DNA of 63,779 nt, the filler included, from Psammoneis japonica (Eukaryota): the NCBI GenBank assembly GCA_008632985.1. It is 4 parts of 4 records of this genome, joined end to end, with 100 filler letters (N's around TTAATTAATTAA, not from the genome) between each part and the next. Parts side by side here need not be neighbours in the genome. Positions count along the whole stretch, not along the records: positions 1 to 17,438 come from QPGO01000477.1; 3 more parts are not named here. One strand, written 5' to 3'. The position numbers were made by a program, and so were the translations under genes. Under the pieces are notes generated by a model. That model was not told the origin of the DNA. It saw nothing but the letters and a program-made list of their open reading frames with translations, and made no database searches. Shown piece by piece: positions 1-58,401 of this stretch (positions within the stretch are counted from its first letter, which is position 1; every line of letters begins with the position of its first letter).

Positions 1-108
1 TCAATGCAGAGGAATGATGACCTGACAAGGCCACAACCTGACAGAATGCCAATGGCAAGAGCAACAAGCTGAAGAGATCTCTACAAACTGGCCAGACAAA
101 CTGGCCAG

Positions 109-202
109 TGACAGCAGATGACACATGCACTGGTGAGAAAGAGAGAGAGAAGCAGATGTCAGAAGATCTGCTCATCTGTCTAAAGTGTCTGTTAGCTGTT
201 AC
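109..202. repeat. LTR-like fragment related to the LTR at 4569-4699
   Basis: Shares the core 'tgagaaag..gagaagcagat.tcaga..gatctgctc.tctgtctaaa' with ~4591-4640; begins TG and could end CA at 202. Boundaries uncertain. Confidence 0.35.
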
Positions 203-1738
203 ATGCATGAAGACAGTGACAATTGTGACAAATGTCATGAAGAGCATGTTGCAGGATGATGGGGCAACATTGTGCAGCCCCCTCCTTTTTTTGCCAAACG
301 TCCATTTTTTCTGGTGGCAAAACCAGTTTTTGTGCCTGGACATGAACACATGCATTGTTCAGCAATCAATGCAAATGCATTGTGCATTCACTGCAATGTG
401 TGAAAAATGTGTGTGCTCTGTGTGCAAGAAATTGTTGAATGTAAAAACCCACATGATGACACACATCTTCAGATGCACACATTTGAGATTTCAAATTTTT
501 CACCACTTGTCGAAATGTGACAACAATGGCGACCGCAAACACAATGTGCTCCATCAACAACAACAAACTCACCATGACACTGGCATGCATCAATGACATG
601 CATCGATGGATCATGATTTGTTTCACATGTGCATGCCTTGCTGTGCTTTGAAATTGATTGATCACATTGAAAACAGCTGAAACATTAAATTTTTTTCCCA
701 TCGCTTTTCGACCTCACAAGTCAACAATGAGCTGGTTGCACTCTCATGTGTAAATTCCATGACACATGAGTTCATGAGATGTGACACACTGTTGATTGCT
801 GTGGCTTTTGAAGGTGGTGCCATTGAGCATTGAGAAAATGGCAACCGCAGAGTCACCATGGTGAGGTGGTTTCTCACGGTTTCTGGCTGTGGCACACCAC
901 CGGTGAATTTGCACTGAATCTGAGTCATGCTTGTCAAGTTAGCATGGCTGCCAGTTTGCACATCATGTGCCCACCATTCTCAGTGGCAGGGCCGGCAGCA
1001 AAAAAAAAACAGTGATTTAGCAGAAAAAGAAGTGACTGAGATTTTCTAGTTTGCCCCAGACAGATGTGCCATGGATGATTTAAAAAGGCTGTTGTGGGCC
1101 AGTTGCTTCCCCCCAGTGTTGACCCATTTGGGGCATGTGGTCCTCTTGTGAATCTCCACACCACTCACATCCCCAAGGGCAGAGCAAGTCAATGTGGGTT
1201 GGGTGAGGCACCGATGGTGTTGTTGGTGATGCCAGGAAGCCAGCATTGTTCTTTCACCAAGACATCACCAAGGCAAGTCCCAAGAGCAAGTGGACATGTC
1301 AAAGAGTGGATTTCTTTAAATTGACTCCTGAGATGATCAACCATTAGATCCAGGACTGGATTGTTGGTCCTTGCAGCAAAACCATGAGAGAGAGAGACTT
1401 GTGGTGCTTGTGTGGAGCATTTGGTGGAGTGTGTCCATGATGCCTCACACTTGTTCAACAACATGGTTGATTGCACCAATTTGGGAAAGCACACACATCC
1501 ATTGATTTGCAAGTCAAAGGATGTCAGTGCCCATGCAACTGATGTGCCTGGTGACGTTGTGGTTGGCATGCCACAGGATTCAGTGGAGCCTGGATGTGAT
1601 GTGTCATAATGGAGCATTGGCGCAAGTGGCAGGAGTGTGTTGGAACATCCAAATCACAAGGGAAACACAAGAAAGCCACACGCATTGAAGAGAAGATGCT
1701 GTGGCTCCTCACATGGCAGATTCAGTGGCTCTTCACAA

Positions 1739-1948
1739 TTGAGATTTCATCATCACCAATCTCTCTCACCTTTCAGTTCATCTCACTATTTTGAGCAAGT
1801 AAAATCAAGAGCATTTGTGACAATTGCAGACAATTGTCACCAACNGCTCTTGATTTTCTACAATTGTCACCAATGCTCTTGATTTTACTTGCTCAAAATA
1901 GTGAGATGAACTGAAAGGTGAGAGAGATTGGTGATGATGAAATCTCAA
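1739..1948. repeat. Long inverted repeat, ~92-bp arms (1739-1830 / 1857-1948)
   Basis: Arms are reverse complements with about 2 mismatches; the spacer contains a single N and a short local duplication. Confidence 0.8.
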
Positions 1949-2334
1949 GATAAGCAGTCATGGAGAAATGCTCACTTGTCAGTCACTTGTTGCCTTTTGG
2001 TGGTTGTGACAGACCTTTAGAAGCATCTTGTTGATTTTTGTGTTGCTGTCTTGCTGAGACTGTGAGTGGCTGAACCTTGTCTGTCAGCTGGATTTACTCG
2101 CTTTGTCAGAGCTGAGTCAAAACTCACATTCAGTGAGTCACAACATGACAAAAAATGATTTTGATGGTCGTGTCATTGTGGCATGGTTATGGTGACAATT
2201 GTTGACTGACCAAAGGGTGTGCACTGCAATGTTTGTTGTTGCCTGGCATCAGCACATGCTCAAGCAGTGGAAAGACAAGGCCAGTCTCTGTGCTTCAAAT
2301 GGCTTGTGTGTCATTGTCAACACAATGTGATGCA

Positions 2335-4400
2335 ATGAGAAACTCTGCTTCTCTGCTGGTGCAGACATCACAATGGTGGCTGCTCCTCTGGATCCAATCA
2401 AGGCAGCACTGGATTGGATTGGATTCACTGACCCAGCTCACTGAGTCTCACTCCTGACAGACTTTGCATCATTGGAGGACTTTGAAGACCTCAAGGAGAG
2501 CAACATTGACTCACTTGCATCTTGTTGTGGGAGGATGACTGCCATTGAAGGGTGCACTCATTTTGGAGCAGCGTGCAGCCATTGTCTCAAATCTCTTGCT
2601 CACTGGGTCCAGGATTTCTGCCGTGTGAGTGAAAAAAGTTCTCACTGTTGGGGGCTTGGACCAAGTGTCTTTCCATTCTCAGTTGCAAATGATGCTCAGT
2701 TTTGCTGAAATTTGTCATTAGCAAAAGGACACCACAGAGTCTCTCAGCAAAGATGCTTCTCCTGGAGTGCTGGAGAATGAGAAAAGATGGATCAAATGGA
2801 GCATGGGTCTTGCAAACATGCTTGGCATTGTGCTCAGAGCATCTAGCATGCTGTTGGTGCACTGCACTTGCATCACAAGAACCCTCAACCTGATGGTCAC
2901 AACACCTTTGTTCAGAAGTGCATTGCCTGTGCACCACTTCATGGTCCAGCTTTTTGAAGCAGATGCTCCCACCATTCATTCATTGATCAAATCCCTTGCT
3001 TTGGCAATGCCAAGTGCTGATCAATGGTCAAAAGATCACAAGAGCAAGCAGAAGGGGCATGCAGACTGTCAAGCTCTCAGTGATCACTGTCAAGGGGGAG
3101 GCAACTCTTCCCATTGCATTTCTGAGACTGAGCGCTTGGAGATTGTGCTCCATCACAAGAGCAAGCATGTCATGCCATTTGAATCATTCATTGACAAGCT
3201 CCAAGAAATGTTCAACATTGTTGAGAAGAATGAGGAACCAAAGACAGAGGCTCAAATGTTGTTGAGACCTTGAAGGCACAGAACAAGTTTGGAAGGGGCA
3301 TCTTGTTCACCACTGGGGCCAATTGTCTTGCCGCAAAGGTTGCCACCCTTCCAGAGATGCTTGCACATTGATTTGCAATTGCGTCAGTCACCTCTGGAGG
3401 AGGGAGAGAGGGCAGTGCCACACACACCAGAATTGGGACCAGTTGAGCAAGGAGTGCTGCAAGCAGAAAGTTGTCATCAAGCACGTGCATCAAGGCACCA
3501 ACAAGAAGCCCAGAAACCCCAAGCATCATGCTGCATCTGTTAAATTGCTTGAGAAGAAGAATCAGAAGCTGTCATCGCAGCTCAAGGAAGGAAGCCACAA
3601 AATCTCTGCTCTCAATGCTGGGACTGACTCTGACTCTGGAGAGGGTGACTCAGGAGTCGAGGGCAAAAACAAGGACAATGCTGGGGACACATTCAGAGGA
3701 CATGGCAAATGGTGCACCAAAGAGGGGTCAATGACTCCTGAGCTAGACCCTGCTCTGTGGTCTCACCAAATTTGTTTTGTGGCTGCTGCACTTCAAGATT
3801 GCCAGAAGATTTGTGAGATCACCACCTCCACAAGATGCATCATGGCGGTGCCATCTGATCCACAAAACATCCACGTGCATGACATGAAGCAGGTGAAGCA
3901 TGGGCATCTTGAACTGGATTCGCATGCTGACACTGCTGTTTATGGTCAAAACTTTGCTCTCCCAGGTCATGCTTGATGGGAATGTGATGTGCCTCCTTGT
4001 GACCAGGGGTGCGAGTCCATCAAGAGCATCCCAATTGCATCAGTGGCCACTCTTGGACATCTCCCAGTCACGGGAGCAATGCATGTGCTTGTTTTTCATG
4101 AGGGCTTGTGGATGGCAGATTTTGTGGAGCACTCACTGTTGAACCCCACTCAGCCAGTTGCAGCATTTTGGCATTGTGGTTCAGGACAACCCCTGTTCCA
4201 AGTCACCATTGCACATCCTCACAGAGGGCAAGAGGAGTCAATGCTGCCCCTTCAAGTGATGGGGACTGGTGTCATTGCCGCCACTTGGACTCCTGCAGAG
4301 ATCAGGATCTCCACCAGTGCCCAAACATCCAGATGACCTCCCACCATCCTTGGGATCCACAAACTGTTGAGTTCAAGCAGTCAAGAACTGGATGATTCAT
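2335..4400 (+). pseudogene. Heavily decayed Ty1/copia (CoDi-like) gag-protease fragment
   Basis: Protease motif GHLELDSHADTAV at ~3900-3940; 'LVFHEGLWM..EHSLLNP' follows; gag-like 'FESFIDKLQEMF'. Many frameshifts and almost no Tyr. Confidence 0.7.
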
Positions 4401-4568
4401 GGAGGAAACAAAGTTGATCTGGCCCATCAAAAGCATTCAAACCAACACATGATGCACAAGCCCAGCAAAGATCCTGCTTGCTGCAATGCTCAGTCCAGGG
4501 GTTGTTGACAGAATGCCGAAGGTCGACAGTGACAGAGGCATGAAAGACTCCCTAAAGTGCCAGGACTG

Positions 4569-4699
4569 TGACAACACGAGTGCCAGTAGATGAGAAAGTG
4601 AGAAGCAGATCTCAGAGAGATCTGCTCGTCTGTCTAAATGGTCTAGCCATCATCCGCATCCAGTCTGTCCATCCTACAATAGGTGTGGATGGGCTGACA
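4569..4699 (-). repeat. Putative 3' LTR of the host copia element
   Basis: Minus strand reads TGTCAG...TTGTCA (TG..CA), directly preceded by the polypurine tract AGGGGAGGG (plus 4700-4708). The partner LTR is not visible. Confidence 0.55.
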
Positions 4700-5443
4700 C
4701 CCTCCCCTGATCTGCAACATCTCAACATAGAGAACAGTGCAGATCAAACCAAAGAATGGGGATGATGTGAGGAAAAAACAGAGAGACCAGACATGGGACA
4801 TGATGAGTGTCCATGCCCAATGCGCCATCAAACAAGGGGGCAATGCGCAGCAGGGAGGCCACCGTGGAAAAAAATATCAACAGCAGTGTCCCATCATGCG
4901 TCGAGCATGGCGGGCATGTGATGCCCAGCCAAGAGCCTTGGCAAGGTCATCGCTGGGGTTGACAATGCCAGGGACATGTCTTGTGACAATCTTGCCCGCT
5001 TCCTTCCATTCTTGAATCGCAAAAAACTGGATCTCAGTGTGACGGGAGCGCTCGGTCGGAATCGAGTGATTGATGATCTTGATCGCCGATTCGTTGTCAA
5101 CACATGACGGGGTTGGCTCCGTCTGAGGGAAGCCTGGGTTGTGTAAAACGTGATGAAGGTGCAGGACATGCTTGGCAGTGGTTCCAGCAGCACAAAATTT
5201 AGCTTCCGTAGAGCTCAGCGGTCACCGATTGGGTCTTGCACCGAAAAGATACAGCAGCACCAGCTAACATGCAAGCATGGCCAGTCGTAGAACGACGGTT
5301 GCGGAGGTCATTGCCACAAGCAGCATCCAAGAAAGCAACGAGTTGATGATCACATGCAGGACAAGGGAACGATGGTAAGGTCGGGTCCGGAGTGAGACGT
5401 TCGAAGGGGCAGGCAGGTAGTTTTGAGTCTCGGGCAGGCTTTT

Positions 5444-5719
5444 TGACAGGATTTGAACAGGATTTGGATGCACGCGAAGTATCGCGCGCTGTTTAGTTTA
5501 CCGCGCACAGTTTTGTGTGCTTTAGTTCCGCGCGTTCGCGCGCGATGTAGTTTGCTTTCGAGCCACAAGGCTCACAAGAATAATGACAGTAGCCCGATTA
5601 TACCGACTTACACGTCTTTCGGCTCCTGCAACGGTCTCTGAGCGGAGACTCATCTGCTATTTAGACAGCAGTAAGGAGTTATTGTTTGAATTCTTGCCAT
5701 TTGCCTTCATTTTCTGTCA
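5444..5719 (+). repeat. 5' LTR
   Basis: Direct repeat of 12272-12547 with 7 substitutions and no indels. Confidence 0.97.
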
Positions 5720-5734
5720 GATTAACAGTCTTGC
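5720..5734 (+). promoter_or_regulatory. Putative primer-binding site complementary to a tRNA-Asn(GUU) anticodon arm
   Basis: GATTAACAGTC immediately follows the LTR. Its reverse complement GACTGTTAATC is an anticodon loop CTGTTAA with flanking stem bases. There is no TGG start. Confidence 0.55.
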
Positions 5735-6659
5735 TCATTGTCAACCCATTGAGCAACCGCCATCGTCGTCGTTGATTTACCAACGACGCTATTTCAATTC
5801 TACGTGGACCTCCGTATATATTCTACATACATCGGCAAGTCTACGCGCATTCAATACCAGGGCATCGGCAGGAAGTTAACGTCACCGTCAAGTCTCCTTA
5901 CCGCTGGATATCTGGATTGATTATACTACCTTTGATCGCTGAAGACATACATTCAACGGTCATATCCAAGTCTATCCTTGATCCTCATCCCTTGATATAC
6001 CTATTCATCGGTTAACGGTCAAGAACCCTACATATTCAAGGATCTTCGTTGCTGAAGACATATATATATATACATATCTTCACGGCCAAGAACCTGTACC
6101 CACTCTTCGGACTACGGTTTTGCTACCACTCTACAAGCACACCGAGTCCATTGTACCTGATCTACCCCGGACTACTGGTGCTCTACAGTTCTACTAGGTC
6201 CACGAGGATGACTGTGAGAGCAAGCAGCCGTGATTACAACCTACGTTGGGGCGAGGGTGCTTTCCCGCGTTTGTTCGTTCGTCCACAGCGCCTAACGCCT
6301 ACGTCAACTGGCCAGCCTGATCGGGAAATCCAACCGATATAAAATAAGAACGGTTCGGGGGTCTTGTCCACCTCTAGTCAGCTTACCTGCAGGGGTTTAC
6401 AACCCGCTACTCCGCTCGTAAGCAACCCAAAGCGCCACTGGCTGCGGGTTCGGACGTGCCGGCACAACTCTACGGACCGGATAGGAAGTTTAGCACTTAA
6501 CAACGAACGGGATAACAAAGCCCGGCGACTTCTGATTTTAAGATAGTTCAAGATTTCAAGTCAAGTCCATTTCAAGTCAAGCCTGTTCTCACCCAAGTTT
6601 CGAGTCTACCTTCGCTTCCCAACCCCGAATTGATTGTCCTGACACCACTTTTGTCTACC

Positions 6660-9600
6660 ATGGTTCTCACTCGTCAGCAACAAACCGATGGTTTCGAGCA
6701 CGTTGTTGGAACCGTGCTTGCCCAAGGTGCTGGGAGTCCTCTTCGTTTAGCTTTGGCCCAAGACGGCACGGACTCGCATCAGGAACTATTCACGTTCATA
6801 CCGTCCCAAATCGACTCGCTTGAGTACGACAACGGCACTAATGTAATCCCTTTGCCCCGTGGTTATAAGAACATGTTAGCAGCACTAGTTAGCCTGTACA
6901 TTGTCAAAGCACACAAGGGGTCTTGACGTTGCCAACGACTCCTCTTTGTTCACGCATGACGAGTTCCTTGCCTGCCGCCTCAGCCCGGACTGCATGTCCT
7001 CTGTGTCCATCGGCAGCTCACCCCTTGCACCTCCACATGTCACCAACCCGACCAAGGCACACGACCCGGTGCGAGACTTCAAGCGAGGCATCAAGCGTGA
7101 TCCCACCGCTTTCACAGCTCTCAAATCCGACAAGCAGTGGCACACTTGGCACACCTCACTTGTGGCACAAGCCCGTGCCCAAGACGTCGAGTGCATTCTA
7201 GACTCGTCGTACAAACCGACCAGCCCCGAAGACAAACTGCTCTTTGCTGAACAGCAAAAGCACATGTTCGCCGTCTTCGAATGCATCCTTCTCACCGACA
7301 AGGGCAAGGCTCTCATTCGCGAAAATGTGGGGTCTTCTGACGCACAGACCGTCTACCGCTCCTTGTCTGAGTGCGCGCTTGCCTCCACCCGTGCATCTGT
7401 CGAGTCCTCCACCCTGCTCACGTACCTCACCACCGCATGTCTTGGTGATGGCACTTGGAAAGGCCCGACCCACGGGTTCATCCTTCATTGGCAAGATCAG
7501 TTGCGCAAGTACGAGGCGCTCATCCCTGCCAGTGACCACTTCTCTGAAGGACAGAAGCGCGTCATGCTCGAGAATGCCGTGCACCCTGTCGAGGAACTCC
7601 GTGCTGTCAAGAACCAAGCTGATCAGCACCGCACGCAGAGTGGCAAGAGCCTCACATACGATCAATGCTGTGGCTTGCTCCTCTCCGCGGCAGCTCAGTA
7701 CGACAGCACGTTTCAACCCAAGACGACACCTAGAGCTCCCCGACGCGCCATGTGCGCACACGACGTCTACTCCGAGGAACCATCCGACGATGTGTTCTAC
7801 GACATTGACAGCGACGTTGACGTCCTTCAAGCCAATGCTGCCTACACCCGCGGTCCCAGCCTCACCGGTGTCCAATGGAGACGTCTCCCTCCCGACCACC
7901 AACGGCTCTGGGATTCGTTGCCCGATTCCTCCAAGGCGATCATCCTTGAGCATTCTCGTCCGCCTCCCCGCAACCCGCGAGCCAGCAACTACCATGAGTC
8001 TGTTACGGCCAACCTTCACGACCAACACCTTGGGAGTGACGGTGATGTCAACTTGTCCAACACGACTCCTGCTGACTGTGGTGACCCGCCACATGTGGAC
8101 GCCACTTCGGATAATCCCATCCTGGCGCACCTCACCAAGCGCAAGCCACTGCCACCCGGTGATCTGCAACGTCTGTTGTCTCCTAACCAAGCCCCCAATG
8201 CCAGTCGACCGGGGCCATCCGCCGCTTCCTCTACCCCGCCAGCTTCTGCAGATAACACAGAACTTGACGGCTGCACTTGCCGCCGCGTTAACAACCACAA
8301 TGTCATTTACTCTGCCTCTGCTCATCGCTCCACACGCACTGGCGCTCTAGTCGATCGTGGGGCCAACGGCGGCATTGCTGGCGACGACGTTCGCGTCATC
8401 GCACGCACCTCTCGCCAAGTCGACGTTCAGGGCATTGACGATCATCAATTGGTGGACATCCCCATTGTCACCGCTGGTGCCGTCATTGAGACCCAGCGTG
8501 GTCCCGTCATCGCCATCCTCCATCAGTGCGCACACACGGGAAAGGGCAAGACCATCCATTCCTGCGGCCAGCTCGAATGGTACAAACAGGATGTCAACGA
8601 TCGCTCTGTCAAGGTGCCCAACGGCTTGCAACGTATTGCCACTCCTGATGGCTATGTCATCCCCATTGACATCAAGGCTGGCCTGCCTTGTGTTGCCATG
8701 CGACCTTACACTGACGCCGAATGGGACACCCTGCCCCATGTCATCCTCACCGGTGATGACACATGGGACCCTTCCGTCCTCGATCACTCTGTCACTGACG
8801 ACGACCAGTGGTACGACGTGATCTCTGACCTGCAGGACGATCCCACTGCCAACCTATTTGACGAATACGGCAACTGCCGTCACCGTGTCGTTGTCAACGA
8901 GACCATCTTGTCCGCTTCCTTGTCTGCCGATCACGCGTCCGCCCTCGATGATCACCTCATTCCGAACGACGACGTGTTCTACGAGTGTCATCTGCATGCG
9001 ATTGACCCCCAGGGCGATGACGTTCCACCTCCGGAGCGCACTGTACAGCCCAAGGACCCCCCCTTTGAGTCTCTTCGGCCTCACTTTGGCTTCCTACCTG
9101 CCGATGCGGTCCGTCGTACTTTTGACTGCACCACGCAGTGCGCCCGCATGCCCGCCGGTACACACCTTCGCAAGGCCTACAAATCACCCAACCCCGCCCT
9201 TAATGTGCACCGCCGCAACGAGCCTATCGCCACTGACACCGTTTATGCCGACACCCCGGCCGTCGACTCTGGTTGCACCAGCGCCCAACTGTTTGTTGGC
9301 ACCGCGTCTACCGTCACTGACGTCTACGGCACTAAGACGGACAAAGAGTTTGTCAACACACTCGAGGATCAGATCCGTGAACGTGGTGCCCCATCCAAAC
9401 TCATTAGCGACCGTGCTCAAGTTGAGATCAGCAACAAAGTGCTTGGGATCCTACGCGCCCTCTTCATCTCCAGCTGGCAAAGTGAGCCTCACCAGCAACA
9501 CCAAAACTTTGCCGAGCGTCGACACCAGACCGTGAAGCGCATGGCGAACACTGTCATGGACCGTTTTGGTTCGCCCGCCCACACATGGCTGCTGGCGCTC

Positions 9601-12324
9601 ATGTACGTGTGCTTCATACTCAACCACACAGCGTCCCCACGTCTCCACTGGCGCACGCCCCTCGAGACTCTCACTGGATCCACCCCGGACATCAGCCCAT
9701 TGCTTCGCTTTCACTGGTGGGAACCAGTGTACTTCCACCTCGATGACTCCGATTGGCCGTCCGAATCCCGTGAGTTGCGTGGACGCTTCGTTGGCATTGC
9801 TGAGCACGTCGGCCACCAGATGACCTTCAAGATCCTATCTGACGAGACTCAGAAGATCCTCTACCGGTCCAACGTTCGCTCCGCTACCCCCGATCCTGCC
9901 GTTCGAAACCTGCGTCTTGATCCTCCTGATGGGGAGCCACCTGAACCCATCATCAAATCTCGCCATGACGACAACCCCGTCGATTCTCCTGATGGGGAGA
10001 TCAGGACACCCAAGATGCCAGTTTTCGATCCGCAAGACATCATTGGACGACCTTCCTCATGCAGCCACAAGAGGACGGACAACGCCACAGAGCTCGCATC
10101 GTCAAGGCCGTCGAAGACCACGAATGGAAAGTGAACGGCAATCCCGAGCTCACTAAGTTCGTCTGCTCTGTCAACAATGACGAATACGAGGAAGTCCTTG
10201 CCTACAATGACATCATGAATCACATTGAGCAAGAAGACGAAGACACTGCTGTTTGGAAATTTCGACGCATTGTGTCACACGAAGGACCTCTGAAGCCTCA
10301 CGACCCAACCTGGAAAGGCTCAAGCTACAACATCATGCTTGAATGGGAGAGTGGGGAGATCACGTCCGAGCCTCTTGCCATCATCGCCAAGGACGACCCC
10401 GTCACCTGTGCCATCTATGCACGAGAGAACGGACTCCTCGACACGGATGGCTGGAAGCGGTTCCGCACTATCGCGAGGCGCCAAAAGAAGCTATTTCGCA
10501 TGGCCAACCAAGCCAAGCTTCGCTCCTTCCGCACTGCACCTCGCTGCAAGTACGGATACGAAGTTCCCCGGAACTACAAACACGCCATGTCACTAGACGA
10601 ACGCAACGGCAACCGCAAGTGGGGAGACGCAACTAATCTCGAGATGGACCAACTCGACGAATACGAAGTCTTCCATGACTGCGGGCCCTTCAAGTCTTCC
10701 ACTCCTCCTGCGGGACACAAGAAGATCCGAGTGCACCTGGTGTCGACGTGAAACACGACGGTCGCCACAAGGCACGACTCGTAGCCGACGGGCACCTCAC
10801 GGACGTACCATCGACAGTGTCCACTCCGGAGTAGTCTCCCTCCGTGGCCTTCGGCTGATGATTTTCCTGGCCGAACTCAACGAGCTGGAGACATGGGCCA
10901 CCGACATTGGCAATGCCTGCCTTGAAGCCACCACCAAGGAGAAGCTTTACATTGTAGCTGGACCCGAATTTGGCAAACTCGAAGGACACATCCTTGTCAT
11001 CCACAAGGCACTGTATGGACTGCGCAGCTCCGGTCTCCGCTGGCACGAGCGCTTCGCCGACTGCCTGCGAGCTGAAGGCTTCTTCCCCTGCCGCGCCGAA
11101 CCCGACATTTGGATGCGCAGGAACGGCGACCACTGTGAACACATTGCCGTTTATGTGGATGACCTCGCCATTGCCATGAAGGACCCTCAATCTTTCATCG
11201 ACACTCTCACGGAAAAGCACAAGTTCAAGCTCAAGGGCACAGGACCCATTGAGTTCCATCTGGGTTGCGACTTTTCCCGGGACCCCGACGGAACCTTGTG
11301 CCTGTCTCCGCGCAAGTACATCGAGCGCATGGTCGACAGCTACGCCCGACTGTTTGGGGAGAAACCTGCCACCAACGCCCTGTCACCTCTAGAGAAGGGT
11401 GACCACCCCGAACTGGACACTTCCGAACTGCTGGGACCCGATGGCATTCACAAGTTCCAGTCTCTTGTTGGTTCACTCCAATGGGCAGTGTCCCTTGGTC
11501 GAATTGACATTGCCACGGCTGTCATGTCACTCTCTAGCTTCCGAGCTGCGCCCCGTCAAGGCCACTTGGATCGTGCCAAACGCATCTGTGGGCACCTCTC
11601 CAAGATGCGACATGGTGCTCTCCGCGTTCGCACGGAAGAGCCCGACCATTCGGATCTCCCTGCTCCGGCCTATGAATGGATGCATTCCGTGTATGGTGAA
11701 GCAGAAGAGATGATCCCGAAGGACGCTCCACCGCCCCTTGGCAAGTTCGTCACTACCACCCACTGCGTCGATGCAAACTTGTGCCATTGCATGCTCACCG
11801 GACGCTCTGTCATGGGAATGCTCCACTTCCTCAACAAATTCCCGGCTGATTGGTTCTCCAAGAAACAAGCCACCGTGGAGACTGCAACCTGCGGATCTGA
11901 ATTTGTTGCCGCAAGGAATTGTGTTGAGCAGATTATCGACCTGCGCATCACCCTGCGCTACCTTGGCGTCCCGATCCGTAATGTCAGTTACATGTTCGGT
12001 GACAACAAGTCGGTTGTAGACAGTGCCACCATCCCGCACTCCAAGTTACACAAGCGACACACCGCACTGTCGTTCCACCGTGTGCGTGAGGCAATTGCCT
12101 CTGGTTACCTTGAGTTCCACTTCATCGAAGGCTCCCGCAACCCTGCTGACATTCTCAGCAAGCATTGGGGTTACTCCCAAATCTGGGGCCTTCTCCGCCC
12201 CCTCATGTTCTGGAACTTCATTCCATCCGAAGTCGAATCTGTTTCTGTGGCTCCTCAAGCAAACTGGGGAGTGACAGGATTTGAACAGGATTTGGATGCG
12301 CGCGAAGTGTCGCGCGCTGTTTAG
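6660..12324 (+). pseudogene. gag-pol polyprotein (frameshifted, with many Tyr to Cys/His changes)
   Basis: ATG at 6660; protease LVDRGANGG; integrase (ATDTVY, ISDRAQ, QNFAER); RT YVDD; RNase H (VDAN, SEF, GDNKSV, NPADILSK). Frameshifts near 6900, 10050, 10742 and 10808. The stop lies inside the 3' LTR. Confidence 0.92.
12261..12271 (+). promoter_or_regulatory. Polypurine tract
   Basis: AAACTGGGGAG directly abuts the 3' LTR. Confidence 0.7.
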
Positions 12325-12547
12325 TTTACCGCGCACAGTTTTGTGTGCTTTAGTTCCGTGCGTTCGCGCGCGATGTAGTTTGCTTTCGAGCCACAAGGCT
12401 CACAAGAATAATAACAGTAGCCCGATTATACCGACTTACACGTCTTTCGGCTCCTGTAACGGTCTCTGAGCGGAGACTCATCTGCTATTTAGACAGCAGC
12501 AAGGAGTCATTGTTTGAATTCTTGCCATTTGCCTTCATTTTCTGTCA
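12272..12547 (+). repeat. 3' LTR
   Basis: Direct repeat of 5444-5719, followed by TSD CTTTT. Confidence 0.97.
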
Positions 12548-15500
12548 CTTTTTGTAGTTCAATTCCCAATGCTTGGTGCGTCAAAGGCACTTGCATGTTC
12601 CTTTGAGCGCGTTGCAGTGAACCACAGCAGGACAGGTCGAGAACTTGGAGAGAGCAGTGATGGCACACCCAATGTCCAGTCGACAGACAATGTGCGCATA
12701 CAACAATTCGCCAAGAAGAGTGCGGCAGCCGAAACCAGCAGCTTGTTGTAGCTCTGCATGCTCCGGGGTTCCTTCAGCTGGGCCAATGGCAGTGTACAGT
12801 TCGCGAACAGAGTCAACAGGGAGTGGCGCAGCCTTGCAGTCATCGTCGAGTTCCTCGTCCGTCGGTGTCGACCAACCATGCGAGGCACAAACCCGATCTA
12901 CACAGCTGTGAACAGCAATGCCAATGGAGTCATCACATTGATGAATGTCGACACCATTGAATTCGTCAATCATGCCAAGACACTTGAACGGCAGAGAGGT
13001 TTCCGAATCCAATTGGAGAGCTTTGCCAATCCTGTCGTAGATTTTGATCGCAACAGACTCTTCAGGACAAGCGAGAGAGAAATCATCAACCTGACGGAGG
13101 AGCAAGATCTTCTGTCCTTCAAAAGCAGCAGAGTGGGTGCATTTGTCATGAGCAGTGTTGCGAAAAAGCAGATTCACATCAGATGAAATGCCGTTGATGT
13201 GTGTCTCCCAGAGCACGCCGGCTTCTGGGTGTCCTTGGAGTGCATGTTGCATCGGAAGTACCATGCTCCTATCCAAGTCAACACCAAATCGAGCCTTGTG
13301 CCAGGTCGCGCATGCCTCGTCCATGGCAACATGTGCAGGATGTGACGGTCGTGGAGAGTGTGCATGGGCATCATGAGCATCCCCACCAAAGACAGGATAG
13401 CTCATGGTCGCAGCAAGGGCAAAAAACATGCATTGGATAGGTTGCTCGACACAGGATGAGTGCGTCGAGTAGAGACGATGTAGCATCGACGCAGCACGGG
13501 GAGATCCATCGCAGCACTGTCGAGAGCGCCGTGTGCCATCATGCTTGAGGTCACATTGCCAATGCGGACGAAGTACGACAGCATCCTTGGGTCATTTAAT
13601 CGGTGCACCAAACATCCCCAACTCATGGAACTGGTCAAGTTGTTTGAATTCACCTGCATGCCATTCTGGCCACGTGTCCAACTTCTTGAGATGATGGCGG
13701 GTGAAAGTGCCTAAGGCTTGTTCCTCTGGAGTAACAGCGTGAGATGACACAGCACAGACATTGACCACACCATTGTCACAATCGACAAAGAACAGTGGAG
13801 GGACATCGTCATTGTCCGTGTCGGAGAAATCAATGTCAGGGTGGCGGATGGCAGCAACAGCACACATGTCGGCGTTGGTGATTTCCGGAACATGCTCATC
13901 ATCAGGATCAGGAGTCGGTGCACATGTGTTGTGTTCCATCAGAGCACATTGTAGAGCTTGAGAGTCCAGGCGACGTTCCGGCGCGAATTCAATTTCAAAA
14001 TGAGTCTTGCCAGAATCATGGACTTGCTGAAAACGTTTGATAGCCTCCTCTGCCGTGAAGATGGGATGATCATCGATCAATGCGACATGCACACCCTTGA
14101 TCTTGTCACGGGTGGCCTTCAAAGAAGAGAAAAGACGCGCAGCAGGAGAACCACGTTTAATGTCAGAGACAAATGCTCGCCGATAGAGATCGTCCATAGC
14201 CAAGGAAAGTCCAAACGTGGGATCAGTAAATGGTCCCTTCATCGTGTGCTCAATGGTCTTGGCAAAAGGATTCCCATGAAAGTGAAATTCATCCATCGTG
14301 GTTTCTTCAGTCTCGGCAGGTAAAGCCTTGCCATCTTGAGCACGTTCCAAGTGAACCACATTCGGCGGAAGAGCGTCGTGGGGAAGATCATTCATGCCCT
14401 CATCACAGCGGATGTGCTTGGCAAGCTTGACACGCGATGTCTCAGTGTCACACCAAAGAATGTTCTTGGTGGTGTCCGGAAGATAGCCTAAGAATATTCC
14501 CTTGCGAGAGACGGACCGAAATTTTGCTGGGCGGTGATTCGACGCACGTACCCACACTCGACAACCAAACGTACAAAAGTTCTTGAAATCATCCTTCCGA
14601 CCAGCAGCGAGAGTAATCAGAGCAGCAAGTTGTCCGCCGGATGGTGTGGCATTGTTGATTCGAATGAAATGATGAAAAGCACAGGGCCAGAATTTTTTGG
14701 GCAAATCGGCACCGATTGGCATCGCCCGGATGGCATTGGCAACAGACAAATGACTGCGTTCCACTGGGCCACTCTGATTTGAAGCATCTTTTCCCGCAGG
14801 ACGAATTGCACAATGAAAGTCATCCTCGAAGAGTCGCCGAACTTCTGGGTTTTGATGCAATTCACCTCCTTGATCCACAAGTGCACACTTGTCTGGACAT
14901 TTTGGCGAGTGCTCTTCCAGAAAGTGGTGAAGCCAATTCAAAGGGGTTGCCTTGGAGACACGAGTCGCACCATGGAGACGCTTCGTTTTGTGATCGTAAA
15001 CAGTGATCCAACAAGTCTCGCCATTCAATCCAACACAGTCCTTGGCACGCTCCGAGTTCTTGGAGCGTAGGCCAGAGAAGGAAAAATCAATCGCAAGGCC
15101 TTGGCAGGGTTGGGTGGCAGTAAGAGCAGCATTCGGACCGGCAGGTTCCTTCGTCTGCTTTGCTCGTACACATGCAGGACAAGTGTCGAGGGGAGAGGTT
15201 CCGTGAGCAAACTTGGGGACGCCGTCAACGTGTTTGTGGGCATGATAAAGGTGGTGATCACTCGGATGACCAAGTCGCTGATGCCATAAAAGACGTTCCG
15301 TGTCGGCCTTGAGAGACTGGACAGGAACATTCTTCTCAGCATGCTTCTCAAAAGGAATGTCTTGATGGACACGGGGGATCAACTTGCGTTCATCATGAAG
15401 AGCTTCATGTTGGTGGGTACGATGAGTTTCAATCACACATGCAGAGACCGCTTCACACTCATCGGCAAAAGAAGGATCACTGGTCTTGAGGCGCTCGACA

Positions 15501-17438
15501 GATGCACCCAGTTCGTCGTTAGATTCCAGGAGAATGAGAGGGTGAGTAAAACATTTTCCATTGATCAATTTCCCATGAATGATGACATCCTGACTCTTGC
15601 GTAATCGGTGTCGTGCAACAAACTTGCAGGTGCCGAGATCATGGAACTTGAGAATGCAATCGACATTGCAATCTGCGCGACGAGTGCCATTTTGACGGAG
15701 TGGCAGTCGCTCATCGATCAACGTAGATTGGATCTGCGGGTGACAGCATGTACGAACCTCAACACATCCGGCAGAGTTCTCTGCAGGAATCCGCAGGTGT
15801 CCGAAGCCAACTGGGACAGCTTGATGGCCAAGGGCGGGATTGACAGCAAGGGGACAGGGATGAGACGGAGTGAATTCTTGGTGTCGATGGAGGAGGTCAC
15901 GGTCACCTGTGCACGCAATGTCAGCACCTGTGTCGAGTTGAGCGCAACATTCATTTGGAGCAAAATTGACCCCATGGACAGAGCAAGTAGAGCGCAGCAG
16001 TTCTGGTTCAGGAGAGTGAGTCGCTTGGCATGGATCAATCGGAGCAACTCGAACAGAATTGACTGCAGCAAAACCATCTTCAACGGCCACATCATCGTAG
16101 GCAAGATCAATGTGTTCCTCAAAATCCGGTGTTTCTGAGGCTTCCCTCCCCTGTTCCAAAGGATCCGGAGCAGGAGCAGCATCGACGGTGTCTTCTTGAG
16201 GAGCAGGGTCATCGTCTGGCAATTTACTAGTGTCGAATGATACCTTCTTGGTAGTGGCAGGGGTGGCAACCATGTCAATCTGCGGAGAAAGAGGCATTTC
16301 AGCGGTGGATGACGAGACGGTTAGTCCCTCTTTCAAGGTCATCCCGCTGACATTAGTCGTGTCTTGGTGAGGAGAAAACGGGCAGCGTCGGAGATCTGAA
16401 ACTAGCTGCGATGGCCCAATTGAAAATCCGAGGGCGGAGCACCAGATTTAGTCAAATTTTCAGGGTTTTCATGATGAGGGGGGAGCAGGCCTTGGGGTCC
16501 TTGGAACTCAGAAGCACACATGGCTGCCTCCCTCTTCAAGAATTGGCAAAAGCGGACATGGAATCCCTTGATGTACGGATTGTTCTTCAAGACTGGACAG
16601 TCGTCAAACAAGTGTTCACCGGAGCAGACGAGACACGGTTTCTTGGAAGCTTCAGTCAGAGCAACTTTCAGCTTGTGAACTGAAGCCGAGCAGACATGGT
16701 GAAGGAGTCGATCTTCATCCGTGGAGGGGAACTCAAGTCCATGTAACTTGTCGCAAAGAGTGTCGAAGGTATCCGAAGAGAGAGATTCTGCACCAGTGTC
16801 TTCAACAGCAGAGTCATTGACTGGTTCAAGTGGAGGGATCTCAGGGACCTGGAGAGCATTGACATCAACAGTCATGCGTCGTGTTTCCTCATTGGTGCGA
16901 TTCCATTTACGGCAGGGATTGGATGGTGTCGCACGGGTGTTAAGGGATGGACCATCCGGTTGGCGGAGGAAATCAGAGAGAGTCTCAACAATCTGTGCAT
17001 CGGTGCACTTCTTCTGCACAGCTGGAGACTTCCGTTCATCTCTGGCAGCACGAGATAAGAACTTGGAGCAACACTTGGTGTTCTTGACAAAGACAGTCAT
17101 CTCTCGTGGATCACTCAACGTAGAGTCCGCATCAAAGATGCAGGCACGTAGCTGCAGGAAATCATTGAAAATCATGTGGTAGTCCATCAATGATCGATTG
17201 CCTTGGGCAGGATAGGAATCAACTAGTCCTGCAGCATCATGGTCAAAAGCAGGGTGATTCTCGTAGATGATCTGCTTGAGAGCCTTGCATCCGTCACCGC
17301 AGCATGATGCAACAATCCGATGACACTTGCTGTGCTTGGGGAACACATCCGACTTGGGTGGGATCTTGTGGAGAGAGCTCTGGGCTTCCTTGCAGTGGAC
17401 GTACATGCGCTGAGGTAAGTCGTCATCTTTGGCCGTTT

Positions 17439-17538
17439 NNNNNNNNNNNNNNNNNNNNNNNNNNNNNNNNNNNNNNNNNNNNTTAATTAATTAANNNNNN
17501 NNNNNNNNNNNNNNNNNNNNNNNNNNNNNNNNNNNNNN
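17439..17538. other. Assembly gap with artificial six-frame stop linker
   Basis: 44 N + TTAATTAATTAA + 44 N. Confidence 0.95.
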
Positions 17539-20500
17539 CTGCATGCTGACGTTGCCTCACAGTTCTCTGGTCAGCTTGACAAGCAGTTGGATGGACAACT
17601 GCAAAAATCGATCCTGTGTCTTCCTGTTCAAAGAAACACAGCAAACAGGAGGGAAACTGTTGATCACCCTTTCGTGTGCCAAAGGTCACACAGTCAAAGT
17701 CATGCCATGGTCCTTCGCTTTTGCAATCGGGGTGCGCACGGTGCGTGTCCCTCCCGCTTGCATTGCAAAACTCTGTCTTGCAAGTCAGGTGTGCATTTTC
17801 ACTGTCTTCACCAACACAATCCTCCCACTTTTCCGACATGAAGTTCAGTGACACAGGACAAACTTGGCAACGAGCATGCTTGCTGTTCCACTCAAACGTC
17901 ACAGCGTCAATCCCTCGGTTGCAGGTGAGAGTGAATGCACTTCCTCCCAGCGTGTGATTGTCCATCCTGACTCTTGATGATTCCTTTTTCCCAGTTGGCA
18001 AAATCCAACTGTTGGCTGAAATTGCGGCGTTGAGCCTCATTTGGTCCTCCACGCATGACATGACCTGCTTCAGAAAACTGTTGAGGTTGCATTGTTGTGC
18101 GGCAGATGACGACAGCTTGAAAAAGTCTTTCAAGAGACACCCCCCCAAGCCTGCGTCAAAGTTCATTGCATGTCGGCAACGACAAAGAAACGCTGGGAGA
18201 TGGAGTGTTTCATGAAGCTTTTGAAGCTTCCACCCGCATCCTTCTGTTTGCGGGACGAATTGCACTGTCCGGTCAATGAGGAGACGGACTTTCTTGTTTG
18301 TTTTCTGAACAGATGAGCTGGGAGTTGCACTTGTGATGGGTGGATCACCTGGCCTGCACCATGCGTGGAAGACAAGAAGGTCCTCGAGCAATTGAGTGAA
18401 TTGCCGGACGCTGCATTTGAGTCTTTTTCCCTTGTGTTTTTTCTTTTTTTGGTTGTCGTCGCCATCCTCAGCCTCGCTCTCCTCTTTCTCATCCTCATTT
18501 TCGTCCCAGTCACCCTCTTTGGACTCCTCCGACCTTTCATCGTCAGAGTCNNNNNNNNNNNNNNNNNNNNNNNNNNNNNNNNNNNNNNNNNNNNNNNNNN
18601 NNNNNNNNNNNNNNNNNNNNNNNNNNNNNNNNNNNNNNNNNNNNNNNNNNNNNNNNNNNNNNNNNNNNNNNNNNNNNNNNNNNNNNNNNNNNNNNNNNNN
18701 NNNNNNNNNNNNNNNNNNNNNNNNNNNNNGACGTTGCTCCTCCTTTGAAGTTTGTTCGCAAAAAGGATGCTTTGCAAGTTGACCAGTGATTGCTGAAAAT
18801 CCTTTCCACTGCTGTCCACCTCACTTGCGACCACAGGTGTCATGCTNNNNNNNNNNNNNNNNNNNNNNNNNNNNNNNNNNNNNNNNNNNNNNNNNNNNNN
18901 NNNNNNNNNNNNNNNNNNNNNNNNNNNNNNNNNNNNNNNNNNNNNNNNNNNNNNNNNNNNNNNNNNNNNNNNNNNNNNNNNNNNNNNNNNNNNNNNNNNN
19001 NNNNNNNNNNNNNNNNNNNNNNNNNNNNNNNNNNNNNNNNNNNNNNNNNNNNNNNNNNNNNNNNNNNNNNNNNNNNNNNNNNNNNNNNNNNNNNNNNNNN
19101 NNNNNNNNNNNNNNNNNNNNNNNNNNNNNNNNNNNNNNNNNNNNNNNNNNNNNNNNNNNNNNNNNNNNNNNNNNNNNNNNNNNNNNNNNNNNNNNNNNNN
19201 NNNNNNNNNNNNNNNNNNNNNNNNNNNNNNNNNNNNNNNNNNNNNNNNNNNNNNNNNNNNNNNNNNNNNNNNNNNNNNNNNNNNNNNNNNNNNNNNNNNN
19301 NNNNNNNNNNNNNNNNNNNNNNNNNNNNNNNNNNNNNNNNNNNNNNNNNNNNNNNNNNNNNNNNNNNNNNNNNNNNNNNNNNNNNNNNNNNNNNNNNNNN
19401 NNNNNNNNNNNNNNATCCGGGAGACAACCAATTGGTTTCCAGACACTCTTGTCTGACCATTTGTTGAAGGCAACATGCACAGAGGTCATGATCGCTGGTT
19501 CTCCGCAACATATCCCATCCCTTGTGTCCTGCCAGTCTTGTCAAGGTGGATGACATTGCACTCGAGAAATTGTTTCTCTGGGTCAGTTGTCCGTTCTTTG
19601 CAACTGTGCCTGTGCCACTCACCCGCCAAAAGGCACTTGTCATCTGGTCCCTTTGCTTTGCACTTCCCAAAAGGATTGTCTGGATCGGCCACATTCTCTC
19701 TGCTGCACCACAGGTGAGGATCGAGCAAAAACTGTTCCCAAACCTTTGTGAAATCCCATCTTGGCACTGACACTCGTTTTGGCAAACCGGTTTTGAAATT
19801 TTTGGTTTCTAGAGTGACAGGAATAGACTCGCTGGGTGGAAGAGGGAAATGCTGGTTAAGGTGTGCATCAACTGTTTTCTCCTTGGCAGAACTGCACCAA
19901 GCTCAATGTTGCTGTTGCCAGTGTGCTCTCAATGAATCAACATGCAATCGCACAATTCCAGGGGAGCACCACGTGTGTCCATGAGCTTCTTGCACAACTC
20001 TGCGCAAGCTCCGTCAAGATTTGTCAAAGAGGGAGCAGAAGCCAAGGCCTCTTCTGCAGGAGCATCACACCTGATCCCCAAACGTTGATCCTCATCGTGA
20101 TGTCCTCTTCCTCCTCCATTGTCATGTCCAATGCTGCAGCAAAGGATTGACCACCGCCAACATCCAAATCGTTCATTGCCAAAAGTTCAACTCCTTGCAT
20201 GCTGTGGTTTGATGAAATGGAGGACATGTCGTCCATTCCGTGCGGTGCGTCATCCGGGGAGGGGAGCAAGGGGCTGCTGCTCAGATCACTTGTTGAAGAT
20301 CTTGGGAATCTGCTGCAAGTTGATCGCCTTGGATGGGATTCATCATCATCAGAGGACAAAGAGGAAGAGCTGCAGCTTTCTTTGGGTGGCCCCTCTGTTG
20401 TGGCAGGAGTGTCACTTTGATCTGGGATTGGATCTTGGGTTTGCAACTCTTGGGCAACTGAGCAACACATCGGTGAGTGTCTCCAATGGCAGGCCATTCA
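17539..20500 (-). pseudogene. Decayed Plavaka/CACTA(EnSpm)-like transposase, copy 1 (with internal gaps)
   Basis: Motifs 'IHLDKTG', 'RTNFKGG', 'LEDLLVFHAW' and 'WKLQKLHETLHL...NFDAGLG...KDFFK'; collinear with 29190-33266. Confidence 0.6.
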
Positions 20501-20918
20501 CAAAAAACTTTGGCCACAACCGGGACAGAGAAGAGGTTTCCGTCCATTGCAAATCAGACATGTTGACAGGGCCTTCATCAAGACTCACACTCGTCATCCT
20601 TGTGAAGGGAAAAAAAGAACAACACGCAAAAAATGGCGGGAAATTGGCAAACATTGCATTGTCTTCCAGATTGGGATGATTCTCACAGGTGTGACGTGTC
20701 TGCATTTTGATTTTTTGTCTGGCATCCACAGCAAACATTGCACTTTTTGTTTGCTGTCAAAATGCAGGATGTCATCTCCGTTGAAACGCAATGACAGCCA
20801 CATCAAAAAGCAAGTTGGGCTGTTTGTTGTCACACACAAATGTTTTCAAATTTCAGTGTTGCTGACAATGATTTGTGCAATGCCACAGAGAAAAACAGAG
20901 TGCCTGGCTGTCTCAACA

Positions 20919-26568: not shown

Positions 26569-26857
26569 NNNNNNNNNNNNNNNNNNNNNNNNNNNNNNNN
26601 NNNNNNNNNNNNNNNNNNNNNNNNNNNNNNNNNNNNNNNNNNNNNNNNNNNNNNNNNNNNNNNNNNNNNNNNNNNNNNNNNNNNNNNNNNNNNNNNNNNN
26701 NNNNNNNNNNNNNNNNNNNNNNNNNNNNNNNNNNNNNNNNNNNNNNNNNNNNNNNNNNNNNNNNNNNNNNNNNNNNNNNNNNNNNNNNNNNNNNNNNNNN
26801 NNNNNNNNNNNNNNNNNNNNNNNNNNNNNNNNNNNNNNNNNNNNNNNNNNNNNNNNN

Positions 26858-27172
26858 ACGTAGATTTCTACGTGTGACATTTAAAAAAAATTGTCCAGAC
26901 TTGCTGTTTTGCGAAGCCCCAGACGTTTTGTGTGACAAATTTATAGAAACAACAATGCGCCAGTTACATTCTTCAATGTCTGAAGAATGTAACTGGCTGA
27001 GTAAAAAATGATGTGCTTCAATCATGTGCGAGTTTGTGCGTTCGCAAAATTGCCTCATTTTCTGTTGACGATCATTGACATTTTAATTGCCTTGTGATTT
27101 TGCTGCGGAGCTCGCACGTAGAAGTCTATGGGCCCAATGTCACACGGATTCCCACCTGCATCTGGAATGCGT
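26858..27172 (+). repeat. Dispersed ~310-bp repeat or element end, homologous to 63471-63779
   Basis: Both begin with (C)ACGTAGATTTCTACGTG and, ~245 bp later, share CGGAGCTCGCACG.AGAA.TCT..GGGCCCAATGTCACACGGA.TCCCACCTG...CTGGAA.GC. Confidence 0.7.
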
Positions 27173-34757: not shown

Positions 34758-34857
34758 NNNNNNNNNNNNNNNNNNNNNNNNNNNNNNNNNNNNNNNNNNN
34801 NTTAATTAATTAANNNNNNNNNNNNNNNNNNNNNNNNNNNNNNNNNNNNNNNNNNNN
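34758..34857. other. Assembly gap with artificial linker
   Basis: N-run containing TTAATTAATTAA at 34802-34813. Confidence 0.95.
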
Positions 34858-39064: not shown

Positions 39065-40837
<1,773 letters not shown>

Positions 40838-58400: not shown

Positions 58401-58401
58401 T

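Follow-up and report, generated by a model that had tools for sequence, protein, structure and literature searches.

The window analysed here is a stretch of 63,779 nucleotides, filler included, from the diatom Psammoneis japonica (GenBank assembly GCA_008632985.1). It joins parts of four scaffolds end to end, and the first of these, QPGO01000477.1, carries at 5444-12547 a retrotransposon bounded by long terminal repeats (LTRs). The differences between these LTRs, the fate of the conserved codons of the element and the composition of the repeats around it point to a mutation process that turns the dinucleotide TpA into TpG or CpA in repeated DNA. A repeat search returned one direct pair, 276 nt long and 97% identical, which constitutes the LTRs (Table 1). 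Their TG...CA ends, the 5-bp target-site duplication that encloses them and an RVT_2 domain located downstream of an integrase part are the features of Ty1/copia elements. Judged from its sequence, this copy belongs among the Ty1/copia elements of CoDi-like type that diatoms carry; two frameshifts interrupt it and make it defective. CoDi, the family of copia-like diatom elements, shares with it these same features as well as a polyprotein of about 1800-1890 aa; the two frameshifts and 11 Tyr to Cys/His changes at conserved positions set the present copy apart.

Between the LTRs lie a leader and three open frames. The integrase part of frame 1 is recognised from the names of its homologues: the search yielded 430 relatives, the best 120 of which are 37-57% identical and mostly polyproteins of 1800-1890 aa, and two of these 120, from Phaeodactylum tricornutum, bear the name 'Integrase catalytic domain-containing'. 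In Pfam, frames 1 and 2 match no family and frame 1 shows no rve domain; the RVT_2 match belongs to frame 3. For this last frame, 8000 sequences were scored and 2606 relatives passed E <= 0.001; the 120 best of them show 58-80% identity in their best local alignments, and one is named as Cylindrotheca fusiformis. Among the matches listed, the closest named relatives of the element are from Cylindrotheca and Phaeodactylum. Overlapping open reading frames (ORFs) of 382 codons are also present on both strands at 7201-8350, within the coding region; they exemplify the spurious long ORFs that survive in TA-poor, GC-rich DNA and could mislead gene callers.

The contigs of four sequencing runs, all from one sample of one study, were aligned to positions 5000-13000. 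In two contigs of the run designated X1, position 5438 is joined directly to 12548, which represents the empty site. The young element is nested inside an older copia element on the minus strand, referred to below as the host copia. No LTR pair was found for the latter when 1-5438 was compared with 16001-17438 by blastn. An exact 28-nt LTR word had 0 matches in the collection of viral contigs.

Table 1. Features of the window, with rho(TA), the symmetrised odds ratio of the TpA dinucleotide, and the seven LTR differences, which are numbered within the LTR.
Feature	Coordinates	Strand	rho(TA)	Remarks
Unassigned repeats, first scaffold	1-4000		0.10	
Older host copia, left part	~4750-5438 (left limit approximate)	-	0.19 (4000-5438)	RNase H end
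Target-site duplication, left copy	5439-5443			CTTTT
5' LTR	5444-5719	+	0.74	276 bp, TG...CA; TA at LTR positions 38, 229, 237; TG at 142; CA at 186, 29; CG at 88
Leader / 5' untranslated part	5720-6888	+	0.97	hardly depleted
Young element, coding part			0.34	
Open frame 1	6889-10134	+		1081 codons between stops; part of CoDi-like copia polyprotein covering gag, protease and integrase
Open frame 2	9993-10751	+		252 codons; middle piece of polyprotein, other frame
Open frame 3	10597-12324	+		575 codons; reverse transcriptase + RNase H; RVT_2 E = 4.5e-22; relatives up to 72% identical
3' LTR	12272-12547	+	0.74	276 bp; TG at LTR position 38; TA at 142, 186; CA at 229, 237; CG at 29; TG at 88
Target-site duplication, right copy	12548-12552			CTTTT
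Older host copia, right part	12553-16447	-	0.22	gag_pre-integrs, SH3_retrovirus, weak RVT_2 (12584-16447)
Unassigned repeats, separate scaffold	17539-34757		0.00-0.22 per kb; 0.04-0.08 for 19.4-34.8 kb	rho(CG) 0.37-0.76
Gene-bearing stretch	34858-49600		0.54-0.65	dinucleotides normal
GlcNAc-transferase-like ORF	36083-37276			
MAP-kinase ORF	39500-40837	-		
MFS (major facilitator superfamily) transporter ORF	47127-48191			
Old CoDi-like relic	49617-51914	-	0.00	73-77% identical to young element
Duplicated, satellite-rich block	52015-63779		0.01 (52-61 kb)	almost TpA-free; no retroelement domains
LTR difference	LTR position 29			5' A / 3' G; CA/CG
LTR difference	LTR position 38			5' A / 3' G; TA/TG
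LTR difference	LTR position 88			5' C / 3' T; CG/TG
LTR difference	LTR position 142			5' G / 3' A; TG/TA
LTR difference	LTR position 186			5' C / 3' T; CA/TA
LTR difference	LTR position 229			5' T / 3' C; TA/CA
LTR difference	LTR position 237			5' T / 3' C; TA/CA

According to the first-pass annotation, the two 276-bp LTRs differ at seven sites, all of them transitions, five opposing TA to TG or CA and two opposing CG to CA or TG, with no transversion and no other context. An alignment and a script agree entirely with this description and give exactly 7 mismatches, 0 gaps and 7/7 transitions. Each LTR has TA at some of the five sites and TG or CA at the others. Pyrimidine-purine (YpR) steps cover 144 of the 276 LTR positions, and the probability that all 7 differences fall within them is 0.0105; the class of TA to CA/TG exchanges takes up 65 of the 276 positions, with a probability of 0.0098 for at least 5 of 7 differences there. 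Counted per position, 5 differences are found in 32 TpA positions (16 TpA present in either LTR) and 0 in the 200 positions counted as non-YpR (Fisher p = 3.8e-5), while 2 fall in 44 CpG positions (22 CpG present in either LTR), the context classes having been chosen after the data were seen. By itself the LTR pair is suggestive; the evidence from the whole window makes the case solid.

The direction of the process can be read in coding DNA, with the help of the other copies of the family. In run X1, 14464 contigs matched the element at a likeness of at least 85%. Going from the window to the other copies, this run yields 147 A>G, 123 T>C, 73 C>T and 70 G>A, and the run designated X2 yields 78, 39, 19 and 15 respectively, with 12 transversions. 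The family differences were classified for the 40 best-supported of 471 rows. Among these 40, 36 are transitions, 35 of them located in YpR steps: the window has TA where the others have TG in 17 rows and CA in 4, TG where the others have CG in 8 and CA where the others have CG in 1; two rows are the reverse at CG and one is GG/GA. In the leader, TA sites of the window correspond in other family copies to TG (8 sites) or CA (2 sites) among these best-supported rows.

Seven of the TA/TG rows oppose a TAC codon (Tyr) in the window to TGC (Cys) in the other copies. In 60 distant homologues, three of these positions are occupied by Tyr in 58, 53 and 50 sequences, two by Phe or Tyr in 46 and 43, and two are variable and uninformative. 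Since the homologues keep Tyr at 5/5 informative sites, the TA of the window is ancestral and the majority of the family copies is mutated. The family consensus, which the first-pass annotation had proposed for polarising the LTR differences, is consequently an unsafe guide: the majority has TG at internal TA sites, yet the distant homologues show that it is this majority which has changed. The same annotation had named as its refutation a direction resembling that of repeat-induced point mutation (RIP), with TA derived; the coding DNA of the element and of two other copia elements has instead TA ancestral and TG/CA derived. At five CpG-type sites, Arg (CGC/CGT) or Ala (GCG) in the other copies is matched by Cys, His or Val in the window. 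At four of these sites the 60 homologues chiefly carry Arg/Lys or Ala, and there the window copy is therefore the derived one, by CpG decay; the fifth, residue 58, is mixed (Arg 17, Tyr 13, His 4).

A more systematic view is provided by an alignment of 45 full-length homologues, in at least 80% of which 690 columns are conserved. The young element deviates at 50 of these columns, and tyrosine is lost at 14/36 positions versus 36/654 for all other residues (Fisher p = 2e-8). Seven of the losses are Tyr to Cys (TAC>TGC, at nt 7667, 8528, 8876, 10919, 11135, 11765 and 11891) and four are Tyr to His (TAC>CAC, at nt 10822, 11140, 11593 and 11647). The residues that RIP would target are conserved, with 0/23 His, 0/19 Gln and 0/5 Cys changed and a single Trp out of 24 replaced (by Phe). 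Replacement of Tyr by Cys or His, with His, Gln and Cys left untouched, defines a process going from TA to TG and from TA to CA, that is, on either strand, A to G after a 5' T. No new stop codon can arise in this way (the only stop altered is TAA, to TGA), which accounts for the survival of frames of 1081 and 575 codons in a decayed copy.

The end state is visible in an old CoDi-like relic on the third scaffold of the window, in which there is not a single TpA in 2298 bp. All ten conserved tyrosines of the relic are lost (5 to Cys, 4 to His, 1 to Ala; p = 9e-7 for Tyr loss) together with 15 of 19 conserved arginines (7 to Cys, 7 to His, 1 to Trp), and the conserved His (0/10), Gln (0/11) and Lys (0/13) are intact. 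Aligned to the young element, 41 TA sites of the latter correspond in the relic to CA (18), TG (11) and CG (2), and 167 CG sites to TG (64), CA (43) and CG (29). Polarised changes at conserved tyrosines thus comprise 11 transitions to Cys/His in the young copy and 9 in the relic. In the host copia, 3/3 conserved Tyr are lost, and a frame of 951 aa contains 5 Tyr, 35 Cys and 57 His. The border of the TA-free zone, at 49616/49617, is the exact start of homology to the element.

This depletion extends to the other repeats of the window and follows a gradient of age from the young element through the host copia to the relic, so that the young insertion forms a TA-rich island within its TA-poor host. 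Counts of TpA per kb are bimodal, 0-12 in the repeats and 34-58 in the gene-bearing stretch of 35-50 kb, and the totals (185 in 41.5 kb of repeats versus 647 in 14.7 kb of gene-bearing DNA) amount to an approximately tenfold gap in density. In the repeats, a rho(TA) of 0.00-0.22 goes along with a rho(CA/TG) of 1.4-1.9 and a rho(CG) of 0.13-0.76. Per kb, rho(TA) is correlated with rho(CG) (Spearman +0.75) and inversely with rho(CA/TG) (-0.78).

The last scaffold carries a block of duplicated and satellite DNA. The duplication (5.58 kb) relates 52015-55856 to 57595-61401, which are 96.4% identical and both almost TpA-free, the first copy having 4 TA in 3842 bp; the two copies are separated by 104 differences, of which 93 are transitions and at least 45 lie at CpG. 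Arrays of a 23-bp satellite occupy both strands at 52.8-53.8, 55.4-56.9, 58.4-59.3 and 61.8-63.5 kb, and the weak Pfam matches of their ORFs to 'LbR_Ice_bind' and 'HA' probably arise as artefacts when repeats in TA-free DNA are translated. As this block lacks retroelement domains and is equally TA-free, the process is not restricted to retroelements and appears to be chromosomal, not tied to reverse transcription.

Relatives of the element in other sources provide a control. Among the best 80 of 586 confirmed metagenome loci encoding relatives, rho(TA) ranges from 0.46 to 1.14 with a median of 0.74, and none is below 0.35; TpA depletion is not a property of the family. Four environmental CoDi-like loci (L006, L010, L026 and L078) combine a rho(CG) of 0.12-0.23 with a rho(TA) of 0.46-0.52. 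Their hosts display CpG decay only, and the ordinary TpA content of these CpG-poor loci indicates that CpG decay alone does not remove TpA. Out of 240 database homologues, 193 are free of any Tyr to Cys/His change at conserved Tyr columns. Tyrosine erosion is found in the relatives P0216 (10/12), P0076 (8/21), P0173 (11/36) and P0086 (5/17), all on ENA/NCBI contigs of 2.6-10.7 kb, which may hint at the same process in further hosts.

The sequence around the affected sites suggests that TA is preferred when a pyrimidine comes next (TAY), notably in TACG. This tetranucleotide accounts for 7 of 17 A>G sites versus 23 of the 185 TpA in the element (p = 0.0016). Compared with gene DNA, the TpA that survive in depleted DNA are enriched in TTAA (3.95-fold) and CTAA (2.2-fold) and impoverished in ATAC (0.15-fold). 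Local RNA folds around the 17 A>G sites revealed no consistent placement in hairpin loops.

All these data are probably, and by a comfortable measure, best explained by a repeat-targeted conversion of TpA to TpG/CpA operating alongside that of CpG to TpG/CpA, in the reverse direction of RIP, the young copia element having been hit after its integration. Its two LTRs would have been copied from one template at integration and struck since then only at TpA and CpG. One of the two processes is an A:T to G:C transition at 5'-TA-3' on either strand, acting far above background and able to clear essentially all TpA from old repeats; the other is the usual decay of CpG to TpG/CpA, as expected of methylated cytosine. 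Both act on repeated DNA, accumulate with its age, end sharply at element borders and converge on TpG/CpA. Diatom transposons are known to be methylated, and the traces of 5-methylcytosine (5mC) deamination, namely CpG turned into TpG/CpA along with CpG depletion, can be recognised at the sequence level in two LTR sites, in the arginines of the relic and in rho(CG). The events would be chromosomal and later than integration, and the proposal of the first-pass annotation that a context-specific process acted on the integrated element gains support here, since the TpA-free satellite and duplicated DNA argues against a process tied to reverse transcription. The five LTR differences of the TA type would then be TA losses, two in the 5' LTR (142 and 186) and three in the 3' LTR (38, 229 and 237), and each LTR would also have lost a single CpG. 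Since integration, about 16% of the TpA positions (5/32) and 4.5% of the CpG positions (2/44) would have been lost, with no change at 200 other positions per LTR. If all seven differences are the product of hypermutation and none is clock-like, the element would be far younger than its 2.5% divergence suggests. As to the chemistry, the preferred and probable candidate is an enzymatic deamination of adenine to inosine in DNA belonging to silenced repeats, the enzyme being TadA/ADAT2-like or some other deaminase.

The same signature has been reported in the chlorarachniophyte Bigelowiella natans, in which integrated viral DNA undergoes TpA to TpG/CpA hypermutation, observed de novo in mutation-accumulation lines (Mettrop et al., bioRxiv 10.64898/2026.01.13.699255). 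According to this preprint, two integrated viral regions gained 231 de novo mutations, of which 230 are A to G or T to C, all at TpA, the rate is about 1000 times the background, adenine deamination is raised as a hypothesis for the signature, and TpA-poor coding sequences are enriched for reverse-transcriptase and DDE domains. The words diatom, retrotransposon and LTR are absent from the text of the preprint (bioRxiv 10.64898/2026.01.13.699255). The two cases have in common A:T to G:C transitions at TpA with TpG or CpA as products according to the strand, a confinement to foreign or selfish DNA, a large local excess of rate, and a trace in which TpA is low while CpA+TpG is high. All these marks are found in the window: changes are almost exclusively A to G or T to C (in the tyrosine codons, the LTR pair and the counts of run X2), the mutated base lies in TpA with both products represented (5/7 LTR differences, 21/36 family transitions, and the relic), selfish DNA is hit and neighbouring host DNA spared (TpA per kb and the border at 49616/49617), and the 0.00-0.22 of rho(TpA) goes with 1.4-1.9 for rho(CpA+TpG). 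The differences reside in the host, a diatom (stramenopile) instead of a rhizarian; in the targets, LTR retrotransposons, satellites and duplications instead of giant-virus and virophage inserts; in the depletion, which reaches a rho(TA) of 0 here against 0.45 in the viral region of B. natans; and in the co-occurrence of CpG loss and the visible TAY/TACG preference. The evidence also differs in kind, since de novo mutation was followed in real time in B. natans and the diatom case is comparative only.

Several points weigh against this interpretation. The five TA-type LTR sites are not polarised directly and take their direction from the coding DNA. The duplication, the one other pair of repeats in the window, shows just 3 TA-type differences among its 93 transitions, a scarcity that would be explained by exhaustion of the TpA substrate (4 left). 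The four sequencing runs are not independent and possibly derive from the source sample of the window itself, and their contigs drop rare variants. The 40 classified rows, being the best supported of 471, are no random sample; two of them (5140 and 12614) lie in the host copia, and 3/40 run the opposite way, with TG in the window and TA in the others. Three of the 14 tyrosine losses lead to Phe, by a transversion, and are probably functional variation. The tyrosine test sees only TpA in Tyr codons, the rates at other TpA being outside its scope. Finally, the baseline against which the survivor motif was read is gene DNA, and not the composition that the repeats truly had ancestrally.

Other explanations were weighed against the same data. 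A cytosine deamination of the RIP type, converting CpA (and TpG) to TpA and CpG to TpG in repeats, would make TA the derived state at the five LTR sites. The affected DNA does consist of repeats, and in 21 of the 40 best-supported rows a TA of the window stands against TG or CA in most other copies, so that a naive majority consensus looks RIP-like. RIP-like or methyl-C deamination at CpA was the first working idea and did not survive the comparison with homologues. At all five informative TAC/TGC sites the ancestral residue is Tyr (TAC), the conserved His, Gln and Cys of the young element are unchanged, the old repeats are TpA-free and not TpA-rich, and no premature stop interrupts the 1081- and 575-codon frames; this explanation deserves practically no credence. 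Hardly better placed is chance combined with an ordinary transition bias, in which the contexts would be nothing special: the LTR differences are only seven and their context probabilities of about 0.01 concern post hoc classes, but the polarised tyrosine losses are independent of them, in the young element as well as in the relic, and the tenfold TpA gap between repeats and genes leaves this reading very improbable. The LTR differences could also have been imported, through ectopic gene conversion or recombination, from differently mutated copies of a family that is very abundant, as judged from the run X1 contigs, and that offers many variant TA/TG alleles. Conversion tracts would however bring in linked variants of any kind, and only isolated YpR transitions are seen over 276 bp; imported variants would moreover still be products of the TpA/CpG process, which alters the place of mutation and not the process. 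Such an import is judged highly improbable. GC-biased gene conversion was rejected as the main cause, the changes being dinucleotide-specific, as was a sequencing or assembly artefact, given that the window alleles restore conserved tyrosines and that TA-poor and TA-rich DNA share scaffolds.

Editing of the element RNA, or of its single-stranded complementary DNA (cDNA), from A to I by an ADAR/ADAT-like enzyme and fixation by reverse transcription at each cycle would be another route to A to G changes. It would agree with the excess of A>G (17) over T>C (4) at TA sites of the coding strand in the family differences and with a UACG preference that recalls the anticodon-loop target of TadA/ADAT, and if single strands displaced towards the end of reverse transcription were deaminated, the LTRs could in principle differ at integration. 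The coding strand of the element, however, contains 88 TAC versus 36 GTA; with a TAY preference this is enough to account for the 17:4 ratio (p = 0.23), and no effect of the RNA strand is needed. T>C changes at TA occur too (4 Tyr to His in the young copy and 4 in the relic), the LTR differences span both strands and both LTRs, and the block of satellites and duplications at 52-63.8 kb, like other repeats without retroelement domains, is equally TpA-free. A change limited to RNA or to the transcribed strand is thus not what the window displays, and in B. natans the signature arises de novo in chromosomal single-copy DNA. RNA editing is therefore considered quite improbable. A thymine-side chemistry fares better but is still unlikely: the T of TpA could be oxidised or modified (to a base of the 5-hydroxymethyl- or 5-formyl-uracil type) and mispair with G, or an aberrant T:G-directed repair could operate in methylated DNA. 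Modified thymine favours TpA in some protists, and 5-formyluracil mispairs with G. TpA is palindromic, so T to C and A to G are indistinguishable from sequence, and the co-localisation of TpA and CpG loss suggests a link to modification-rich chromatin; the TACG/TAY preference resembles instead known targets of adenosine deaminases.

With the conversion of TpA in chromosomal DNA retained as the preferred explanation, its relation to known systems can be specified. Like fungal RIP, it produces dinucleotide-specific transitions at repeats, degrades transposons and leaves a compositional scar. RIP, however, makes TpA from CpA/TpG, creates stops and lowers the GC content, whereas the diatom process destroys TpA and raises GC; neither C:G to T:A changes from CpA to TpA nor TpA enrichment in repeats is what the window contains. 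CpG 5mC deamination is recognised in 2/7 LTR differences, in the Arg to Cys/His losses of the relic (15/19 arginines lost) and in the low rho(CG) of the repeats, and leaves the TpA losses unexplained. The adenosine deaminases share with the diatom process an A to G change after 5' U/T, an enrichment in TACG and a recurrent Tyr to Cys recoding. ADAR hyper-edits the double-stranded RNA of repeats, and TadA/ADAT edits UACG loops, which turns Tyr (TAC) into Cys (TGC) in bacterial mRNAs; ADARs are known only from animals. Unlike these RNA enzymes, the process in the window concerns DNA, both strands, resident copies and repeats that are not retroelements. APOBEC3 is comparable in that the host imposes a context-specific deamination signature by which retroelement copies are killed, but it targets C in cDNA, with G to A on the plus strand and a 5'-neighbour context, and not A:T to G:C at TpA on both strands. 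A full-text literature search, with subscription journals outside its scope, found no report of a TpA-targeted process in diatoms.

The window as a whole strings together separate scaffolds, three of about 17.4, 17.2 and 17.1 kb, in descending order of size, followed by a fourth that is cut off; the parts are joined by N44-TTAATTAATTAA-N44 spacers at 17439-17538, 34758-34857 and 51915-52014, and features are not to be read across these joints. The N runs at 18551-18729, 18847-19414 and 26569-26857 resemble ordinary scaffold gaps, and the dip in GC content to 0.31 at 18-20 kb is probably due to this stretch being mostly N. Tandem repeats of 8 bp flank N runs at 17430-19500, and two-copy tandem repeats are present at 21184-21363 (90 bp, 98% identical) and 34498-34725 (114 bp, 81% identical). 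The repeats at 17539-34757 and 1-4000 (about 21 kb) contain many long ORFs on both strands without a Pfam match, and may be old mobile or viral DNA that is no longer recognisable; 1-4000 is the most CpG-poor stretch of the window, with a rho(CG) of 0.07-0.22. In the gene-bearing stretch, the nearest proteins to the MAP-kinase ORF are those of Nitzschia (72%), Fistulifera (70%) and Fragilaria (68%), none exceeding 80% among the matches listed.

A wider interpretation can be proposed, tentatively and with less than even confidence. Diatoms would possess a repeat-directed defence by adenine deamination of DNA, a mirror image of RIP, whose TAY/TACG preference would be inherited from a tRNA-anticodon deaminase of the TadA/ADAT2 lineage, which would operate in the same chromatin as cytosine methylation and which would be an old system of the stramenopiles, alveolates and rhizarians (SAR). 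Every 5'-TA-3' in transposons, satellites and duplications would be converted to TG/CA, and the proteins encoded would be killed by Tyr to Cys/His recoding, never by new stop codons.

As far as literature searches show, a process of A:T to G:C change at TpA in selfish DNA is otherwise described only in the single chlorarachniophyte preprint of 2026. With the present data its range comes to include a second algal lineage, one that is ecologically dominant, and its targets come to include LTR retrotransposons as well as satellites. What is new here is the nature of the targets (retrotransposons, satellites and duplications) and the more extreme end state: the process can run to completion and leave TpA-free DNA. 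LTR pairs provide natural before/after pairs from which its rate and motif can be gauged. In such genomes, polarisation by consensus, RIP indices, ORF-based gene calling and dating by LTR divergence all mislead, gene calling because TA-free DNA keeps very long spurious ORFs. Should the wider interpretation hold, its occurrence in a stramenopile and a rhizarian would make this process an old system of the SAR supergroup and not the oddity of one alga.

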